Source: Abditibacteriaceae bacterium (GTDB taxonomy: Bacteria; Armatimonadota; Abditibacteriia; Abditibacteriales; Abditibacteriaceae). From it: 35,910 nucleotides of DNA. Shown here piece after piece: positions 1,146 to 7,622 of the stretch. The stretch spans positions 1 through 35,910 of the forward strand of contig JANPJS010000125.1 of assembly GCA_031425655.1 (NCBI GenBank), written 5' to 3'. How positions within the stretch are numbered: position 1 is the first letter of the stretch; each line of letters begins with the position of its first letter. The notes below the pieces were generated by a model that was not told the DNA's origin, did no database searches, and saw only the letters and a program-made list of their open reading frames with translations. The translations under genes and the position numbers were made by a program.

Positions 1146-1294
1146 GATTTCCTTTTTACGAGCAAGCAAAGATGCCCGAAAGTTTAGCAGCCGCGCTTTG
1201 AACGATGTTCTTAAACGGTGTTGCCCATGCAAAAAAAGCGAATTCAGAATCCCATCCTCGCCCCTTCGAGAAGACGCGATGGTCTAAAGTCGGC

Positions 1295-2845
1295 ATGAAA
1301 TTCCACGCCTGCTTCGCACTGCTATTAACCGCCCTGCCCGTTGCCGCCGACAACTGGCCACAAGCCGCCGGGCCAAACGGCACTTGGCAAACCGAGGGCA
1401 CGCCGCCAACTGCGTGGAGCGTGACGCGCAACCAGAATATCGTCTGGAAAAGCGCTCTGCCCGAAGAAGGCCAAAGCGGTATCGCCGTGTGGAACGACCG
1501 CGTTTTTCTCACGACCATGAAGCCTCTGGCGCTGGACGCGAAAAGCAAGGAAGGCAGCGACATCGTGGGTTATTGCTTAGACGCCAAAGACGGCAAAATC
1601 CTCTGGACGGCAGATTTGCCCGGCACGGTTAAAGGGCCTTACGCTTACGGTTTCAGCAATTCGTCCACGCCTTCGCCGATCACCGACGGCAAACATGTTT
1701 GGTTTTATAACGCCAGCGGTTCACTCGGCTGCTACGATTATTCCGGCAAACAAATCTGGCTGCGCACATGGCAACCAACAGCTAACGGACGGCCCTTCAA
1801 CAAGCAATTCGAGCCGATAATGATCGGCGAAACCGTGCTTAATATGGAGCCGCGCGACGCCGACGACCCAAAACGCGAAAAAGACGCGTGGAATTATCTG
1901 CGCGCATTGGACAAAACGACGGGCAAAACGCTGTGGATTTCCGACGATGCTTTAACGCACTACAACACGCCGCGCATCGGAGTTTTGGCCGACGGCAGCT
2001 ACGCGATTTTGCAAGGTCGTGGCGGCCATCACGACGTGCCGGAAAAGCCCGAAGGCTTGAGTCTGATGAGCCTGGCACACGGACAAGCCGGAAAAACGCT
2101 GTGGCGCTACGAAACGCCCACGCACGCGCTTTACGTCATGCACTGGGACAAGAAATACGCGTATTGGCTCGGCGAACAAAACGGTGAACATCGCGTGCTG
2201 GACGCCAAAACCGGCGCGCTTTTACGCACGCAGTCGCTGACGGAAAAAGTAGATTTACGCAGCTTCGATTCCGAAACCGGCAAATACAAATTGCAAGCCG
2301 GCATCAATCTAAAAACTCAAACGCCGCCGATTAACGTGATGCCGGCGTGGTTTTCCAACATCGTAGTCGGCGATTGGCACTATTTTCTGTGCTTTACGGA
2401 CAGTGGAGCCAAGCGCGGCCCGGCTTATTGCATTGGGCGCGTAAACGTCGAAAGCGGCAAAGTGGAATATTTGGAAGTTCCTGTTCAAGTCAAGCGCGAA
2501 GCCGGACAGCCCGACAGTTTTATCTGGCACCAATCGCAGCCGGCTTCAACCGTCAATTCGCGCGGCATTGACGTGGCGGGCGACCCTCGTTCGCGGCGCG
2601 ACGGCTGGTATTGGAATTTCAACGGCACTCCGACTGCCGTCGGCGGCAAAATATTCTTTAACACGATGCTCGGCGTCACTTACGTTATTGATGGCCGCGC
2701 CCCGATTTTCGATGAAAAAGCGCTACTTTCGGTCAACGATCTCGGCCCCGGCGGGCAAACATGGAGCCTGAATTCCATCAGCTACGCCAATAATCGGCTG
2801 TATCATCGCAGCATGAAAGAAGTGGTTTGCATCGGTGGCAAGTAG
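1295..2845 (+). CDS. Secreted PQQ-like (BamB-type) beta-propeller repeat protein
   Basis: Signal peptide then ADNWPQAAGP, with repeated LDAKDGKILW / LDKTTGKTLW blades. Confidence 0.85.
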   Translation: MKFHACFALLLTALPVAADNWPQAAGPNGTWQTEGTPPTAWSVTRNQNIVWKSALPEEGQSGIAVWNDRVFLTTMKPLALDAKSKEGSDIVGYCLDAKDGKILWTADLPGTVKGPYAYGFSNSSTPSPITDGKHVWFYNASGSLGCYDYSGKQIWLRTWQPTANGRPFNKQFEPIMIGETVLNMEPRDADDPKREKDAWNYLRALDKTTGKTLWISDDALTHYNTPRIGVLADGSYAILQGRGGHHDVPEKPEGLSLMSLAHGQAGKTLWRYETPTHALYVMHWDKKYAYWLGEQNGEHRVLDAKTGALLRTQSLTEKVDLRSFDSETGKYKLQAGINLKTQTPPINVMPAWFSNIVVGDWHYFLCFTDSGAKRGPAYCIGRVNVESGKVEYLEVPVQVKREAGQPDSFIWHQSQPASTVNSRGIDVAGDPRSRRDGWYWNFNGTPTAVGGKIFFNTMLGVTYVIDGRAPIFDEKALLSVNDLGPGGQTWSLNSISYANNRLYHRSMKEVVCIGGK

Positions 2846-2851
2846 AATCGC

Positions 2852-3403
2852 TTATTCGCTCCAATGCGTTGCTATCGCTTTGCAGAATACGATCATTTCG
2901 TCGTGGCTGAAGCGGTTCTTGGCGCAGTTGGCCATGTAACAAACGAACTGCACGTTACCGCTTACATAACCCTTTTTCGGGTCAATCCGATCTAAACTGG
3001 CGCATTGTGGTCTTAATTTCCAGCGGCCACCAATATATTCGCCGGAGCTTTCGGGGATGAGCATTTTCCATCCTGTATAAGGGCAGATGCCTTGCTGCCG
3101 TCCCCATAATTCCTTGAGCAATTCAAGATTCAAAGAAAACTCAAGCCCAAACTCGACAGAACGCCTGCGAGCCGTGCGTAAAAACACTTTGAAACTTGAA
3201 TAGCCGTCTTTGCGACTGTAGCCCCGCAAATGCTCCCAAATCTTGGTGTCTTCTGGAATATTTTTTAAATTGGCCTTTCCGGCACATGACCTTGAACAAT
3301 AAATCGGTCGTCCCAGCCGATTGCTGCGGAGAACTTCGCTGCGAACTCTCTGATAGGTAGATTCACAAATTGGACACACTAATTCGATCATCGTTTGTGC
3401 CAT
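2852..3403 (-). CDS. Zinc-finger plus His-Me (HNH-like) endonuclease-family protein
   Basis: N-terminal CPIC...YCSRSC and C-terminal CPYTG...SLDRIDPKKGYVSGNVQFVCYMANCAKN. GGAGG SD 8 nt before the ATG at 3403. More AT-rich than its neighbours. Confidence 0.75.
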   Translation of the reverse strand: MAQTMIELVCPICESTYQRVRSEVLRSNRLGRPIYCSRSCAGKANLKNIPEDTKIWEHLRGYSRKDGYSSFKVFLRTARRRSVEFGLEFSLNLELLKELWGRQQGICPYTGWKMLIPESSGEYIGGRWKLRPQCASLDRIDPKKGYVSGNVQFVCYMANCAKNRFSHDEMIVFCKAIATHWSE

Positions 3404-3457
3404 AAAAAATGCCTCCGACTCCATTTTATCAAATGGAATCGGAGGCATTTTTTATGG
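3400..3457 (-). terminator. 27-bp hairpin: tmRNA terminator that also sequesters the nuclease SD and ATG
   Basis: Arms 3400-3426 and 3431-3457 with one G.U pair in the minus-strand RNA. The GC core is followed by U6. Confidence 0.8.
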
Positions 3458-3460
3458 AGT

Positions 3461-3842
3461 TGGAAGCGTTGGGAATTGAACCCAAGTCCGCGAGGTGAAC
3501 GACAACGGCATCTACAGGCTTAGTCGCGTTTTGATTTAGGTGCTCGCTCCCGACACGACAGCGGAATACGCGCACCGAGTTCGCATTTTGCTTCTACCTT
3601 GCGGTTTCGGCGTGCCGGAAAACTAAAAGGGGCGAACTAACCCGTTAATTTTCCATCCGTCTGAGTGATGTTTAACGAAGTCCGACGGACAAAACTCTGT
3701 TAAACATGGCGGCGATTAAGCAGCCAGGGCCAGCGGTTGCTGGTAAGTGTTGGCAATTGTGTTTTTGAGCTGTTTAACGAGTCTGCCCAACTCGGCCTGC
3801 CACCGTTGCATCCAAGTCCCCACGTCGAAACCTGTCGCCCCC
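3461..3842 (-). ncRNA. ssrA: tmRNA
   Basis: 5' GGGGGCGACAGGTTTCGAC. Tag ORF 3754-3716 reads ANTYQQPLALAA*. T-arm TTGGG-TTCAATT-CCCAA, acceptor 3' strand CGCTTCC-A with G3.U. Confidence 0.95.
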
Positions 3843-3889
3843 GTTAAGCAAACCTAAAACGCGAAACAGCCTGCGCCGTTCCCGCTTTT

Positions 3890-4897
3890 TCACGCGCGAT
3901 GCCCGTAATTCTTGCGGTAATACGCCTGATAATCCTCGCCGGATTTAATGGGGCGCCACCACGCTTCTTGGTTGCGATACCACATCACGGTCGTGCGAAA
4001 AGCGTCTTCGAAAGAGTGTTGCGGGCGCCAGCCCAGAGCAGAAATTTTATCGCAGCTCAGCGAATAGCGGCGGTCGTGGCCGGGCCGGTCGGCGACGTGT
4101 TTAATCAGGCTTTCGGGCTTATTCAGCAAGCCCAAAATGCCGTAAGTGATCTCGCGATTAGTGTGTTCGTTGCCGCCGCCGATATTATACGCTTCGCCCG
4201 CTTCGCCTTCTTCGGCGCATAGCAAAATGCCCCGGCAGTGGTCTTCGGCGTAGATGAAATCGCGCTGCTGCAAGCCGTCGCCGTAAAGCGGCAAGGGCAA
4301 ATCATCCATCGCGTTGGTGATAAAAAGCGGCATTAATTTTTCGGGAAACTGATACGGCCCAAAGTTATTCGATCCGCGCGTAATAACGACCGGTAAATCG
4401 TGCGACACGAAATACGAGCGCGCAATCAGTTCGCCGCCGGCTTTGGAAGCTGCATAAGGCGAACGCGGCAAAAGCGCGTCTGTTTCGACGCTGTGCCCGT
4501 GATGCACATCGCCGTAAACCTCGTCGGTGCTGACGTGCAAAAAGCGTTCGATATTCCGCCGTTTGGCTTCTTCGAGCAGAACGTAAACGCCGTAAGTGTT
4601 GGTTTGAATAAACGAACCGGCGTGTTCTGCGCCTTCGATAAGCGATCTGTCAACGTGCGTTTCCGCCGCGAAATTGAAGACCCATGAGCAGCCATCCATC
4701 GCTTCAGCAACGACTTCGGGATCGCAAATATCGCCCTGCACGAACTTCACGTCCAGACCCTCTAAGTTCTCCATGCGCCCGGCGTAAGTCAGCTTATCCA
4801 ACACCACAACACGCCAATCGGGACGCTCGCGCGCAATTAAACGCACGAAGTTGCTGCCGATAAATCCGGCGCCGCCAGTCACTAAAATCTGCTTCAT
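3890..4897 (-). CDS. rfbB: dTDP-glucose 4,6-dehydratase
   Basis: TGGAGFIGSNF, AAETHVDRS, STDEVYG, YAASK and DRPGHDRRY motifs. Confidence 0.95.
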   Translation of the reverse strand: MKQILVTGGAGFIGSNFVRLIARERPDWRVVVLDKLTYAGRMENLEGLDVKFVQGDICDPEVVAEAMDGCSWVFNFAAETHVDRSLIEGAEHAGSFIQTNTYGVYVLLEEAKRRNIERFLHVSTDEVYGDVHHGHSVETDALLPRSPYAASKAGGELIARSYFVSHDLPVVITRGSNNFGPYQFPEKLMPLFITNAMDDLPLPLYGDGLQQRDFIYAEDHCRGILLCAEEGEAGEAYNIGGGNEHTNREITYGILGLLNKPESLIKHVADRPGHDRRYSLSCDKISALGWRPQHSFEDAFRTTVMWYRNQEAWWRPIKSGEDYQAYYRKNYGHRA

Positions 4898-5724
4898 AAT
4901 TGGTTTTGCAGATAATTGACAGCGACGCGCGCATTGCCGCCGCTTTTGTCTAAGGCCGCTTGTGCAGCCGTTTCGTCAACACCGGCCAAGTTCATAACCA
5001 AGCGCCGCGCGCGATCTTCCAACTTGCCGCACAAAGGCCGCAAATCCGTCATCAAATTGCCCTCGACGCGGCCCAAACGCAGCATGACGCCGGTAGAAAT
5101 CATGTTCAGCACCAGTTTTTGCGCCGTTCCCGATTTCATGCGCGTCGAGCCGGCAATCACTTCCGGCCCGACTGCGGGCGCAATGAGCACATCGCACCAA
5201 TTCGCCATCGCCGCCTGCGGATTGACCGTCACGCCCGCCGTAAAAGCGCCGATTTCGCGCGCGAATTGCAGCGCGCCGATGACATACGGAGTGCGTCCCG
5301 ATGCTGTTAGTCCGACGACGCAATCGAGCGCTGTCAGTCCGGCTTCACGCAAAACGGCGGCGCCGTTTTCGATTACGTCTTCGGCGCCTTCCTGTGAGCG
5401 AAACATCGCTTCGCGGCCTCCGGCGATGAAGCCTTGCACCCATTCGGGCGGCGTGCCGAAAGTGGGCGGGCATTCGCTGGCATCCACCACGCCGAGGCGC
5501 CCAGACGTGCCGGCGCCGACATATAACAAGCGCCCGCCGCTTTTTATGCGCGCGGCCACAGCGTCCACGACTTGCGCCACTTCATCCAACACAAGCGCGA
5601 CCGCGACCGCCACTTTTTGGTCTTCGTCGTTGATCAGTTGCAACGCCTCGCGCGTCGGCAATCGCGACAAATCGCCGGTGCGAGGGTTGACGGCTTCGGT
5701 GGGAAGATGAGATAAATCAGACAT
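4894..5724 (-). CDS. murQ: N-acetylmuramic acid 6-phosphate etherase
   Basis: GAGTSGRLGVVDASECPPTFG and GSTRMKSGTAQKLVLNMIST motifs. Confidence 0.95.
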   Translation of the reverse strand: MSDLSHLPTEAVNPRTGDLSRLPTREALQLINDEDQKVAVAVALVLDEVAQVVDAVAARIKSGGRLLYVGAGTSGRLGVVDASECPPTFGTPPEWVQGFIAGGREAMFRSQEGAEDVIENGAAVLREAGLTALDCVVGLTASGRTPYVIGALQFAREIGAFTAGVTVNPQAAMANWCDVLIAPAVGPEVIAGSTRMKSGTAQKLVLNMISTGVMLRLGRVEGNLMTDLRPLCGKLEDRARRLVMNLAGVDETAAQAALDKSGGNARVAVNYLQNQL

Positions 5725-5730
5725 TTTGAT

Positions 5731-5847
5731 TGACGAGTGACGAGTGACGAATTACGAATTACGAATTACGAATTACGAATTACGAATTACGAATTACGAA
5801 TTACGAATTACGAGTAAAATTCGTAACTCGTCACTCGTAATTCGTCA
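5731..5847. repeat. Heptamer tandem repeat with inverted copies
   Basis: 12 forward T(T/G)ACGA(A/G) units, including 8 perfect TTACGAA (5752-5807), then 4 inverted units (5820-5847). Confidence 0.95.
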
Positions 5848-6723
5848 CTAAGCCCAGCCATCTTCGAGCATTTGCCGCAGATATTGGGCGTATTCGGTTT
5901 TGCCAAGCGCGGCGATCTGGCGCTGCACGCCTTCAGCGTCAATGTAGCCCATTTGGTAGGCGATTTCTTCAAGACAGGCGATTTTCAAGCCCTGCCGTTT
6001 TTCGATGGTCTGAATGAAGGTGCCGGCTTCGAGAAGGGAATCGTGCGTGCCGGTATCGAGCCATGCCGCGCCGCGTCCGAGTTTTTCCACGCTGAGTTGG
6101 CCCATTTCTAAATACGCGCGGTTTACGTCGGTGATTTCCAGTTCGCCGCGCGCCGACGGCTTGACCGCAGCTGCAATTTCCGTAATGCGCGCGTCGTAAA
6201 AATAAAGCCCGACGACGGCATAATGCGATTTCGGATGGGAAGGCTTTTCTTCGATGGAAATCGCCCGTCCCGTCCCGTCAAATTCCATGACACCATAACG
6301 TTCCGGGTCTTTGACCCAGTAACCGAAAACGCGGGCGCCGCGTTCAAGGCACGCAGCATTTTGCAACTGGGCGCTGAGGCCTTGTCCGTGGAAAATATTG
6401 TCGCCTAAAACCAAGCACGCCGGGCCGCCGGCCACGAACTCTTTGCCGATATGAAAAGCCTGCGCCAATCCTTCGGGACGCGGCTGTCCGGCGTATTGAA
6501 TATTGATTCCATACTGGCTTCCGTCGCCTAAAAGCCGTTGAAAAAGCGGTAAATCGTGCGGAGTTGAGATCAAAAGAATGTCGCGCAGGCCCGCAAGCAT
6601 TAAAACCGACAGAGGATAATAGATCAGCGGCTTGTCGTAAACCGGCAGCAATTGCTTGGAAACCGCCTGCGTAATCGGATATAATCGGGTGCCGCTGCCG
6701 CCTGCCAACACGATGCCTTTCAT
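5848..6723 (-). CDS. rfbA: Glucose-1-phosphate thymidylyltransferase
   Basis: [35 protein letters not shown] and [10 protein letters not shown] motifs. Confidence 0.96.
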
Positions 6724-7196: not shown

Positions 7197-7622
7197 ATGG
7201 CTTACGATCCCGAAGCCCGTCAGCAAAGTAATTCGGCCATGACCATCGGCATTGTCGCTCTGGTCTTGTTGGTTTTAGGCGCCGTCGCCTATTTCGCAAC
7301 GCAAGGCCCGCGCGACACAGTTGTGACTGCGCCTGCGTCCACGCACACCGAACGCACAATTGTCGAGACCGCACCGGCAAACCCGGCTCCGCCAGTCGTT
7401 ATTCACGACGCCGCGCCGCCGGTTATAGTGCAGGGTCAACCGCAGACAAAGGTAATCGAGCGCAACAACACGATTACCCGCGACCGCATCGTTTCCCCAC
7501 CGGTTAAGGAGGGCGACACCAACGTGACGGTCAACGTGCCTCCGGCACCAGACCGCGACACAGCCCAACCTCAAGCCGGTTCTGATGGCGGTGAAGCAGC
7601 TCCCAAGCCTGAAACCCCGTAA
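7197..7622 (+). CDS. Single-pass membrane protein with Pro-rich tail
   Basis: SD GGAGGA before the ATG at 7197. N-terminus MAYDPEARQQSNSAMTIGIVALVL resembles the previous gene. Confidence 0.8.
   Translation: MAYDPEARQQSNSAMTIGIVALVLLVLGAVAYFATQGPRDTVVTAPASTHTERTIVETAPANPAPPVVIHDAAPPVIVQGQPQTKVIERNNTITRDRIVSPPVKEGDTNVTVNVPPAPDRDTAQPQAGSDGGEAAPKPETP

Follow-up and report, generated by a model that had tools for sequence, protein, structure and literature searches.

A PacI-like nuclease gene behind ssrA and its family, probable free-standing homing endonucleases of tmRNA genes

Directly behind ssrA, the gene for transfer-messenger RNA (tmRNA), an Abditibacteriaceae bacterium of the phylum Armatimonadota (assembly GCA_031425655.1, here G000) carries a gene for a 183-aa protein, P0001. 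We studied it within contig JANPJS010000125.1, whose 35,910 nt, the whole stretch analysed, are called the window below. With a probability of about three in four, we read P0001 as a free-standing homing endonuclease, a member of an unnamed PacI-like family aimed at the T-arm and acceptor strand of tmRNA genes. Carrying this reading are a PacI-type fold with an intact active site, near-obligate contact with tmRNA ends in phages and several bacterial phyla, a patchy distribution, and linkage between nuclease and tmRNA end in cyanobacteria.

A PacI-type nuclease with an N-terminal zinc finger

No family was assigned to P0001 by Pfam, NCBIfam or PADLOC, the PADLOC defence models yielding 0 families at E up to 1. 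Matches over the nuclease domain came from PHROGs, namely PHROG 3322, labelled "endonuclease" (E 3.4e-23), and PHROG 1035, labelled "endonuclease VII" (E 1.1e-16). We found 386 homologs among 420 candidates, and a wide search returned 11,365 representatives at E up to 0.001. PacI was the top match in a PDB profile search with 102 homologs (E 0.0015), in Foldseek with a structure model of predicted local distance difference test (pLDDT) 94.5 (E 3.7e-4, the sole match under 1e-3), and in VIA-align (Z 7.5, root-mean-square deviation 5.8, 107 residues aligned). PacI and HNH structures head both the Foldseek and the VIA-align lists, and the model contains a beta-beta-alpha core. The scores of these comparisons are modest, but all three methods concur on PacI.

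The active site is conserved, with D138 present in 214, R139 in 212, Y146 in 215 and N/Q159 in 215 of 215 sequences. Passages of PMC5714182 describe a loop tyrosine that replaces the catalytic histidine in PacI and place the enzyme in His-Me finger group 20. The original prediction, made from this DNA alone, had called the protein HNH-like, with a C-terminal His-Me finger. Membership of the His-Me fold group and the beta-beta-alpha fold stood up to structural comparison, but the catalytic His is absent and the residues D138-R139, Y146 and N159 are of the PacI type, with Tyr rather than His. The HNH label itself had to be given up: Arg occupies position 139 in 212 of 215 sequences, there is no HNH Pfam match, and sequence and fold searches both point to PacI.

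The same prediction had read the C-terminal CPYTG...VC stretch as a conserved Cys site, and this also failed, since C107 occurs in 215 of 215 sequences but C155 in only 36, leaving no conserved four-Cys site around the nuclease core. In PacI a four-Cys zinc site flanks the nuclease core, and two CxxC motifs are visible in the PacI profile alignment. The predicted N-terminal CxxC...CSxxC zinc module held: C10, C13, C36 and C40 are invariant in 102 homologs and form a treble-clef-like zinc finger. Over residues 4-53 the profile of the 102 homologs gave weak matches to eL24 (E 0.007-0.06) and to other zinc fingers, and in PHROGs the finger matches the phage HNH family phrog_1271 too.

The nuclease is probably a homodimer, judging from modelling. 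A two-copy model scored 0.60 against 0.17 for the best control, a mark that true homodimers attained in 20 of 30 cases and monomers in 1 of 23; contacts agreed by at least 88% between runs at a pLDDT of 71-72, and the result may merely reproduce the PacI structure known to the predictor. Most cyanobacterial homologs are about 325 aa long and carry two intact active sites per chain, which fits a dimer fused into one chain. A fused form of 544 aa occurs in Calothrix NIES-4105 (L261). Set beside PacI (PDB 3ldy, 3m7k), the family aligns in the Asp-Arg pair, the loop Tyr and the helix Asn, with a dimer through the C-terminal helices predicted. Unlike PacI, to which identity is about 21%, it has an added N-terminal zinc finger, no conserved four-Cys site, a tie to tmRNA genes and, in cyanobacteria, tandem forms within a single chain. 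The family falls outside the canonical HNH nucleases and has the active site of PacI without its whole architecture.

Contact with tmRNA ends, layouts and inheritance

We fetched 220 loci, comprising the best 80 of 206 metagenome matches, the best 80 of at least 532 viral contigs and 60 of 61 genome matches; 202 of these had full flanks (at least 150 nt upstream and at least 120 nt downstream). By a strict pattern, part of a tmRNA adjoins the nuclease gene in 145 of the 202 loci, compared with 4 of 678 other open reading frames (ORFs) in the same loci. Including ARAGORN calls brought the count to 163, and a relaxed T-arm pattern (6 of 671 controls) together with calls made by eye brought it to 192. 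In clusters at 60% identity, contact was found in 49 of 70 automatically and in 62 of 70 finally. The final proportion was similar by source (metagenomes 65/69, viral 72/76, bacterial genomes 55/57), and the named hosts are metagenome-assembled genomes or isolates of Acidobacteriota, Cyanobacteriota, Bacteroidota and Fidelibacterota as well as the crAss-like phages cr56_1 and cr128_1. The association fails in reverse: just one of 29 ARAGORN-confirmed viral tmRNAs, from a set chosen by 5' pattern (80 loci analysed of 120 matches), has the gene. Ten loci with more distant matches contained no tRNA or tmRNA by ARAGORN, and distant phage matches adjoin terminase or polymerase genes. The tmRNA link is therefore a property of this clade.

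In four loci (L206, L212, L257 and L124) the gene lies between tRNA genes or overlaps them (Ala/Leu, Ser/Ser, Arg); no tmRNA was found in their vicinity, and they may be cases of retargeting. Two of them, L206 and L212, had been labelled by eye as permuted tmRNA; this was wrong, and both were reset to "none".

The 192 contacts take several layouts. The gene stands directly behind the tmRNA 3' end in 126 loci, further behind in 9 and convergent in 13; it follows an intron-split tmRNA in 8 and lies antisense inside a T-loop group I intron in 9. Another 23 were first classed by a divergent 5' end, and in 4 the gene precedes the 3' piece of a two-piece tmRNA gene. The gap from tmRNA 3' end to gene has a median of 60 nt (quartiles 49-68, 131 loci). 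Placed on a quickly built tree with 114 proteins, these layouts need 17 changes, where 5 is the minimum; L152, which is unclear, was drawn there as an intron class. Repeated re-settling around one 30-nt region, together with entry into introns, is behaviour as of homing endonucleases.

Rfam, run on 16 loci, found an intron and a tmRNA together in L058, L068, L228, L234 and L085, an intron core adjoining the stop of the nuclease gene in L202, L214, L215, L252, L260 and L100, and two-piece tmRNA genes in L193 and L066; the tmRNA of L079 escaped it. The gene sits within a group I intron in the relatives L202, L214, L215, L252 and L260, not in the window copy. The intron of L202 and L215 is placed after the T-loop's TT, at 18 nt from the discriminator, a position among the minor T-loop sites described in passages of PMC11915505. 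Intron-bearing tmRNAs make up 18 of the 202 loci and 9 of the 70 clusters, set against 883 of 97,179 genes in the tmRNA database according to the same passages, a comparison that loses force for our reading in that the baseline is mostly bacterial and the locus set phage-rich.

In crAss-like loci, the tmRNA's 3' piece, whose T-loop is odd, lies antisense to the nuclease C-terminus and overlaps or adjoins it, so the gene there fills the spacer of a two-piece tmRNA. Describing these loci as merely divergent from the tmRNA 5' end was incomplete, given the 3' piece that overlaps the nuclease antisense. The crAss-like gut phages L072-L167 and L486 have such two-piece tmRNAs with an unusual T-loop, split round the antisense nuclease and unannotated in NC_055890. 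Near the nuclease gene of the crAss-like contig L079 lie a RAGATH-9 RNA and a Hatchet ribozyme (5747-5914 and 7443-7582). In L141, a sense nuclease gene stands between the tmRNA 3' piece and the tag-coding piece and, by eye, seems to overlap the 5' end of the latter.

Within the phylum of the window, the family profile matched 5 of 401 genomes, and the gene is intact only in G000. Two genomes of the same genus, G002 and G003, share the upstream genes and ssrA, which is followed by a plain terminator and other genes; the nuclease is absent, and the genes downstream of ssrA differ among all three genomes. A frameshifted copy in G350 and a fragment of 47 residues in G320 stand directly behind ssrA; G001 and G099 gave partial matches, which lie away from any tmRNA. 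Two metagenome loci whose tmRNA is of the same host family have the gene too (identity 53% in L056 and 46% in L057), and in the protein tree the window protein clusters with these and with homologs that lack context. The window copy is best explained as horizontally gained and still intact, at a single chromosomal ssrA. In another genus of the family, L044, L045 and L046 have a nuclease-free ssrA with a terminator resembling the window hairpin described below and the same position-69 variant; by sequence, these features are candidate relics of a lost copy, or the alleles may be kin of the donor.

In the cyanobacterial family of G401, 117 of 121 genomes gave a tmRNA match and 17 carry the nuclease. 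The gene lies at most 300 nt behind ssrA in 16 of the 17 carriers (15 of them at 68-154 nt) and on a separate short contig in the last; three copies are degraded. In one cyanobacterial group (L109, L236, L242, L263, L268) the match begins about 500 nt behind ssrA. Among 89 tmRNAs in the 91 loci examined, the ends form four compensated acceptor-stem/T-stem haplotypes, which switch 16 times on the tmRNA-interior tree (minimum 3). Switches occur in loci L396-L485 and L217-L275, even between near-identical tmRNA genes (L396, L397), in genomes mostly now without the nuclease. Carriers from genomes fall into ten haplotype groups, which require 9 changes on the nuclease tree (38 rows), the fewest possible, and 13 on the tmRNA-interior tree (40 rows).

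Two Calothrix loci, L266 and L275, have an identical 70 nt upstream and close interiors with different ends, and the L266 nuclease is placed apart from those of their neighbours L261 and L267. Of 72 non-carriers, 54 retain a carrier-type hairpin, and BLASTN found a retained 5' gene fragment in L400 and L433; a "relic start codon" test, positive in 9 of the 72, was too loose, and only these two fragments were used. Carriers and non-carriers differ in haplotype (3/17 versus 47/72, Fisher p 0.0007), a difference that we did not count because it ignores kinship. As far as sequence comparison goes, in cyanobacteria the gene is gained, decays and is lost, and the tmRNA end goes with it.

The spacer, a possible homing cycle and its rivals

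The 57-nt gap between tmRNA and nuclease gene in the window is nearly filled by a hairpin that takes in the ribosome-binding site and start codon (-43.9 kcal/mol, z = -12.9, a stability unmatched in 200 shuffles) and that the original prediction had missed. A promoter and terminator scan listed neither the hairpin nor the motif in its loop. Across the family, TATAAT-type motifs occur in 16 of 50 spacers, compared with 3.7 after shuffling. The spacer also contains degenerate copies of the last 8 nt of the tmRNA, the best matching 7 of 8 positions (3434-3441) and one at the usual offset of the family matching 5 of 8 (3440-3447). In 50 cluster representatives, the tmRNA's own 8-mer matches its own spacer better than permuted ones do (6.46 versus 5.88, p 0.0005), the copies lying mostly 20-24 bp past the tmRNA end and occurring in hairpin-less spacers too. 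Where the tmRNA end is not upstream, the 8-mer motif stands before the ATG in 17 of 24 representatives, compared with 3.3 after shuffling, often doubled and in either orientation. Passages of PMC2988022 report that T4 I-TevI represses itself through an operator resembling its homing site, and that SegB and others of T4 have a ribosome-binding site hidden in a hairpin. By analogy, control logic of the T4 type may apply to the spacers of this family.

In the homing cycle that we propose, DNA target, cut site, immunity, operator and promoter are all putative. The protein, probably a dimer, would bind a short TCCA(C)-type motif resembling the tmRNA acceptor 3' strand and cut at the T-loop, or close to it, in an ssrA allele without the nuclease gene. 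Repair from the carrier allele would then transfer the carrier's T-arm and acceptor strand, its spacer and the nuclease gene to the allele that was cut. The carrier would be spared by an altered T-arm or acceptor sequence or, in some lineages, by a T-loop group I intron. In the window, the putative target region is the 3' part of the tRNA-like domain; compared with the empty alleles of the same genus, it has a different T-stem and a different position 69. Expression would be kept low by the hairpin, which may terminate read-through from ssrA and hide the ribosome-binding site; a promoter in the loop could give a translatable message, and the spacer copy of the tmRNA end could serve as a self-repression operator.

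A number of points weigh against homing. Cutting, binding and mobility of the nuclease are predictions, and the match to PacI is modest (TM score 0.38 of the query, Z under 8). The loci are best matches from pattern-seeded searches, not a census; 9 of the 202 are without a tmRNA part and 1 is unclear, some of them beside tRNA genes. We sought a fixed immunity signature in the T-loop or acceptor and found none: the T-loop is canonical in 29 of 43 carrier cluster representatives and in the window copy, and the same cyanobacterial end haplotypes occur in carriers and non-carriers. The excess of odd T-loops over viral controls (canonical in 31 of 33) was not counted because the control set, picked by a canonical 5' pattern, is biased. 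For the window copy, the tmRNA-interior tree of its family, which does not resolve the node in question, gives no signal of co-conversion. In cyanobacteria, linkage of 3' end and nuclease could come from physical closeness alone, and interior recombination with selection keeping the ends matched would give the same picture.

Other explanations share part of this evidence. It is unlikely, in our estimate, that the protein acts on or with the tmRNA molecule, whether as a partner of the tRNA-like domain or by cutting foreign or host tmRNA while the neighbouring variant resists, as in phage takeover or an addiction module, with co-evolution holding the gene beside its cognate RNA. The finger's resemblance to the RNA binder eL24, the T4 Srd and sigma-decoy families among the PHROGs matches, the odd T-loops in 14 of 43 carriers and the end haplotypes that track the nuclease tree would all suit such a role. 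The upstream motif, however, occurs in both orientations, which suits a DNA site, and the gene runs antisense within introns and over tmRNA ends, decays and is lost repeatedly, and accompanies so few of the 5'-picked, ARAGORN-confirmed viral tmRNAs; the finger, moreover, matches phrog_1271 as well.

We hold it to be quite improbable that the protein is a site-specific DNase that excludes competitors by cutting non-self ssrA, in co-infecting phages or in the host gene, with copying as a side effect and bacterial copies as leftovers. Nearly all viral loci (72/76) have the arrangement, but so do the bacterial-genome loci (55/57); PacI itself is a restriction enzyme without a methylase (passages of PMC5714182), but no PADLOC model matches P0001. 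The active sites in cyanobacteria are intact and duplicated, and intron-embedded copies and end co-inheritance are what homing predicts. The enrichment at tmRNA genes largely refutes a further view, that the gene is a remnant of a prophage or island integrated at ssrA and the nuclease unlinked to the site, and we give this very little credence. It would account for the low G+C and for the different downstream genes in G000, G002 and G003, ssrA being an integration hotspot (PMC11915505); yet a displaced 3' fragment of ssrA is absent from the assembly, the homologs in phages adjoin tmRNA genes that belong to the phages themselves, and a narrow gap (median 60 nt) goes with several independent layouts. 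Homing thus remains our preferred reading, and the original prediction of an intron-less selfish element homing into ssrA is largely supported by the enrichment of homologs at tmRNA genes that it had called for (145-192 of 202 loci against 4 of 678 control ORFs), by the expected absence of vertical conservation (empty syntenic sites in G002 and G003), by relatives in T-loop introns and by end co-inheritance. It needs amending in that most of the family is carried by phages and some of it is not intron-less.

The locus in the window and known systems

Features of the locus in the window
Feature	Position	Strand	Evidence and remarks
Convergent neighbour, PQQ-like beta-propeller protein	1295..2845	+	Pfam PQQ_2 E 3.4e-12; G+C 55.7%, host-like
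PacI-like nuclease gene, 183 aa (P0001)	2852..3403	-	zinc finger and beta-beta-alpha-metal domain
27-bp hairpin with the shape of a two-way terminator, pairing off the ribosome-binding site and start codon	3400..3457	-	fold
Shine-Dalgarno GGAGG, 8 nt before ATG, in the hairpin 3' arm	3412..3416	-	sequence, fold
Extended -10-like motif TG-n-TAAAAT in the hairpin loop, candidate promoter	3423..3431	-	sequence; weak for the window copy
Degenerate copies of the last 8 nt of the tmRNA, candidate operator	3434..3447	-	function putative
3' portion of the tRNA-like domain with GGAC, T-arm and acceptor 3' strand; putative target region, also from intron sites and haplotype linkage in relatives	3461..3489	-	sequence comparison
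tmRNA gene (ssrA)	3461..3842	-	ARAGORN; Rfam RF00023 156.7 bits; one-piece gene of the standard kind, tag ANTYQQPLALAA
Upstream neighbour, NAD-dependent sugar dehydratase	3890..4897	-	Pfam GDP_Man_Dehyd/Epimerase; synteny

The window ssrA does not encode its CCA tail. As first described, the nuclease gene is on the same strand as ssrA, its ATG 58 positions past the tmRNA discriminator A (57 bases between), and its stop is 6 nt from that of the convergent neighbour; the ORF call and coordinates agree. The AT-richness noted then (23-30 GC per 60 nt) was recovered in four counts of 30, 29, 27 and 23, and ORF G+C is 47.1% against 56.7% for the genome, a value as low being found in 1.8% of 10,673 genome windows of 552 nt; G+C at third codon positions is 51% against a median of 67%. 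The gene is single-copy in the assembly. Rfam found no intron in the window, and a search of the assembly found no displaced ssrA 3' fragment (attR), both as predicted.

We ran Pfam on two downstream and three upstream ORFs. The two visible downstream genes encode the beta-propeller protein, which does not belong to the element, and an oxidoreductase, with nothing of an integrase-type island among them; the downstream view stops at 2.85 kb because the contig begins at window base 1. The dehydratase gene upstream, presumably rfbB-like, is the conserved anchor for the orthologous site in G002 and G003.

Contigs of one sequencing run, possibly the source sample, match 1200-3998 with zero differences. 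In fragments from two other runs, nuclease identity is about 97.5%, compared with 88-94% for most neighbouring protein-gene fragments, a gap between unlinked pieces that gives a weak hint of recent transfer. No empty-site joint was seen in the contigs of the sequencing runs. Further upstream, a SIS-domain gene (4894-5724), which we take to be MurQ-like, lies within a sugar-nucleotide gene pair; it is apparently split by frameshifts in G002 and G003 (L031, L032), which may be assembly errors. Between it and the next gene are 9.6 perfect copies of the heptamer ACGAATT (5747-5813), followed by a related 14-mer repeat (5821-5849). Elsewhere in G000, contigs C61 and C317 hold 7 and 5 clustered tRNA genes outside the main set, perhaps of mobile-element origin.

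In its mode the family is like SegB and F-CphI. Passages of PMC2988022 describe T4-like free-standing homing endonucleases such as SegB as optional genes beside a conserved RNA gene, with a hairpin that hides the ribosome-binding site and, for I-TevI, an operator-like copy of the target, all of which have counterparts here. Unlike SegB, a GIY-YIG enzyme that targets a tRNA intergenic region according to those passages, this family is of the PacI type, tied to tmRNA, and resident in bacterial chromosomes as well. F-CphI, known from collaborative homing in psbA of cyanophage S-PM2, is likewise a free-standing beta-beta-alpha nuclease beside an intron-bearing gene, with an Endo VII catalytic motif and a psbA target (passages of PMC6083498); here 9 loci stand beside an intron-bearing tmRNA and 9 more lie inside the intron, whereas most members, the window copy included, are intron-less.

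The homing genes of T-loop group I introns share the same host RNA and loop, and some family members are found there. In passages of PMC11915505, detection of such genes concerned LAGLIDADG enzymes only, in 36 of 883 introns, whereas this family has no Pfam match and is mostly free-standing; the passages of that paper that we found mention no flanking nuclease, and its supplements may list intron ORFs of the family. PHROG 3322 and PHROG 1035 match over the nuclease domain, but their labels name no target and the distant matches are not at tmRNA. Our literature search, which covered listings and the beginnings of abstracts and left supplements and most subscription journals outside, turned up no report of a nuclease family, PacI-like or HNH, that flanks tmRNA genes.

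More tentatively, and with the balance of probability against it, the family could be a hidden driver of tmRNA 3'-end evolution: the cutting of rival alleles would force compensated swaps in the tRNA-like domain, select for T-loop introns at minor sites, occupy and perhaps help create the spacers of two-piece genes, and move between phage and host ssrA. This idea draws on the 16 or more switches counted for the 89 genes of a single cyanobacterial family, the majority of these genes being nuclease-free today.

If the homing reading is true, this would be a homing endonuclease family that uses a PacI-type Tyr site, whose chemistry has until now been known from a restriction enzyme, and that resides intron-less in bacterial chromosomes. 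It would offer a testable cause for the lack of an own nuclease in most T-loop introns, for the odd T-loops and swapped acceptor stems of some lineages, and for the many phage tmRNA genes that escape standard finders. A site-specific nuclease of 183 aa against a gene of nearly all bacteria would be a candidate for a compact tool, and the protein may serve as a marker for unannotated phage tmRNA genes, such as those of crAss-like phages.

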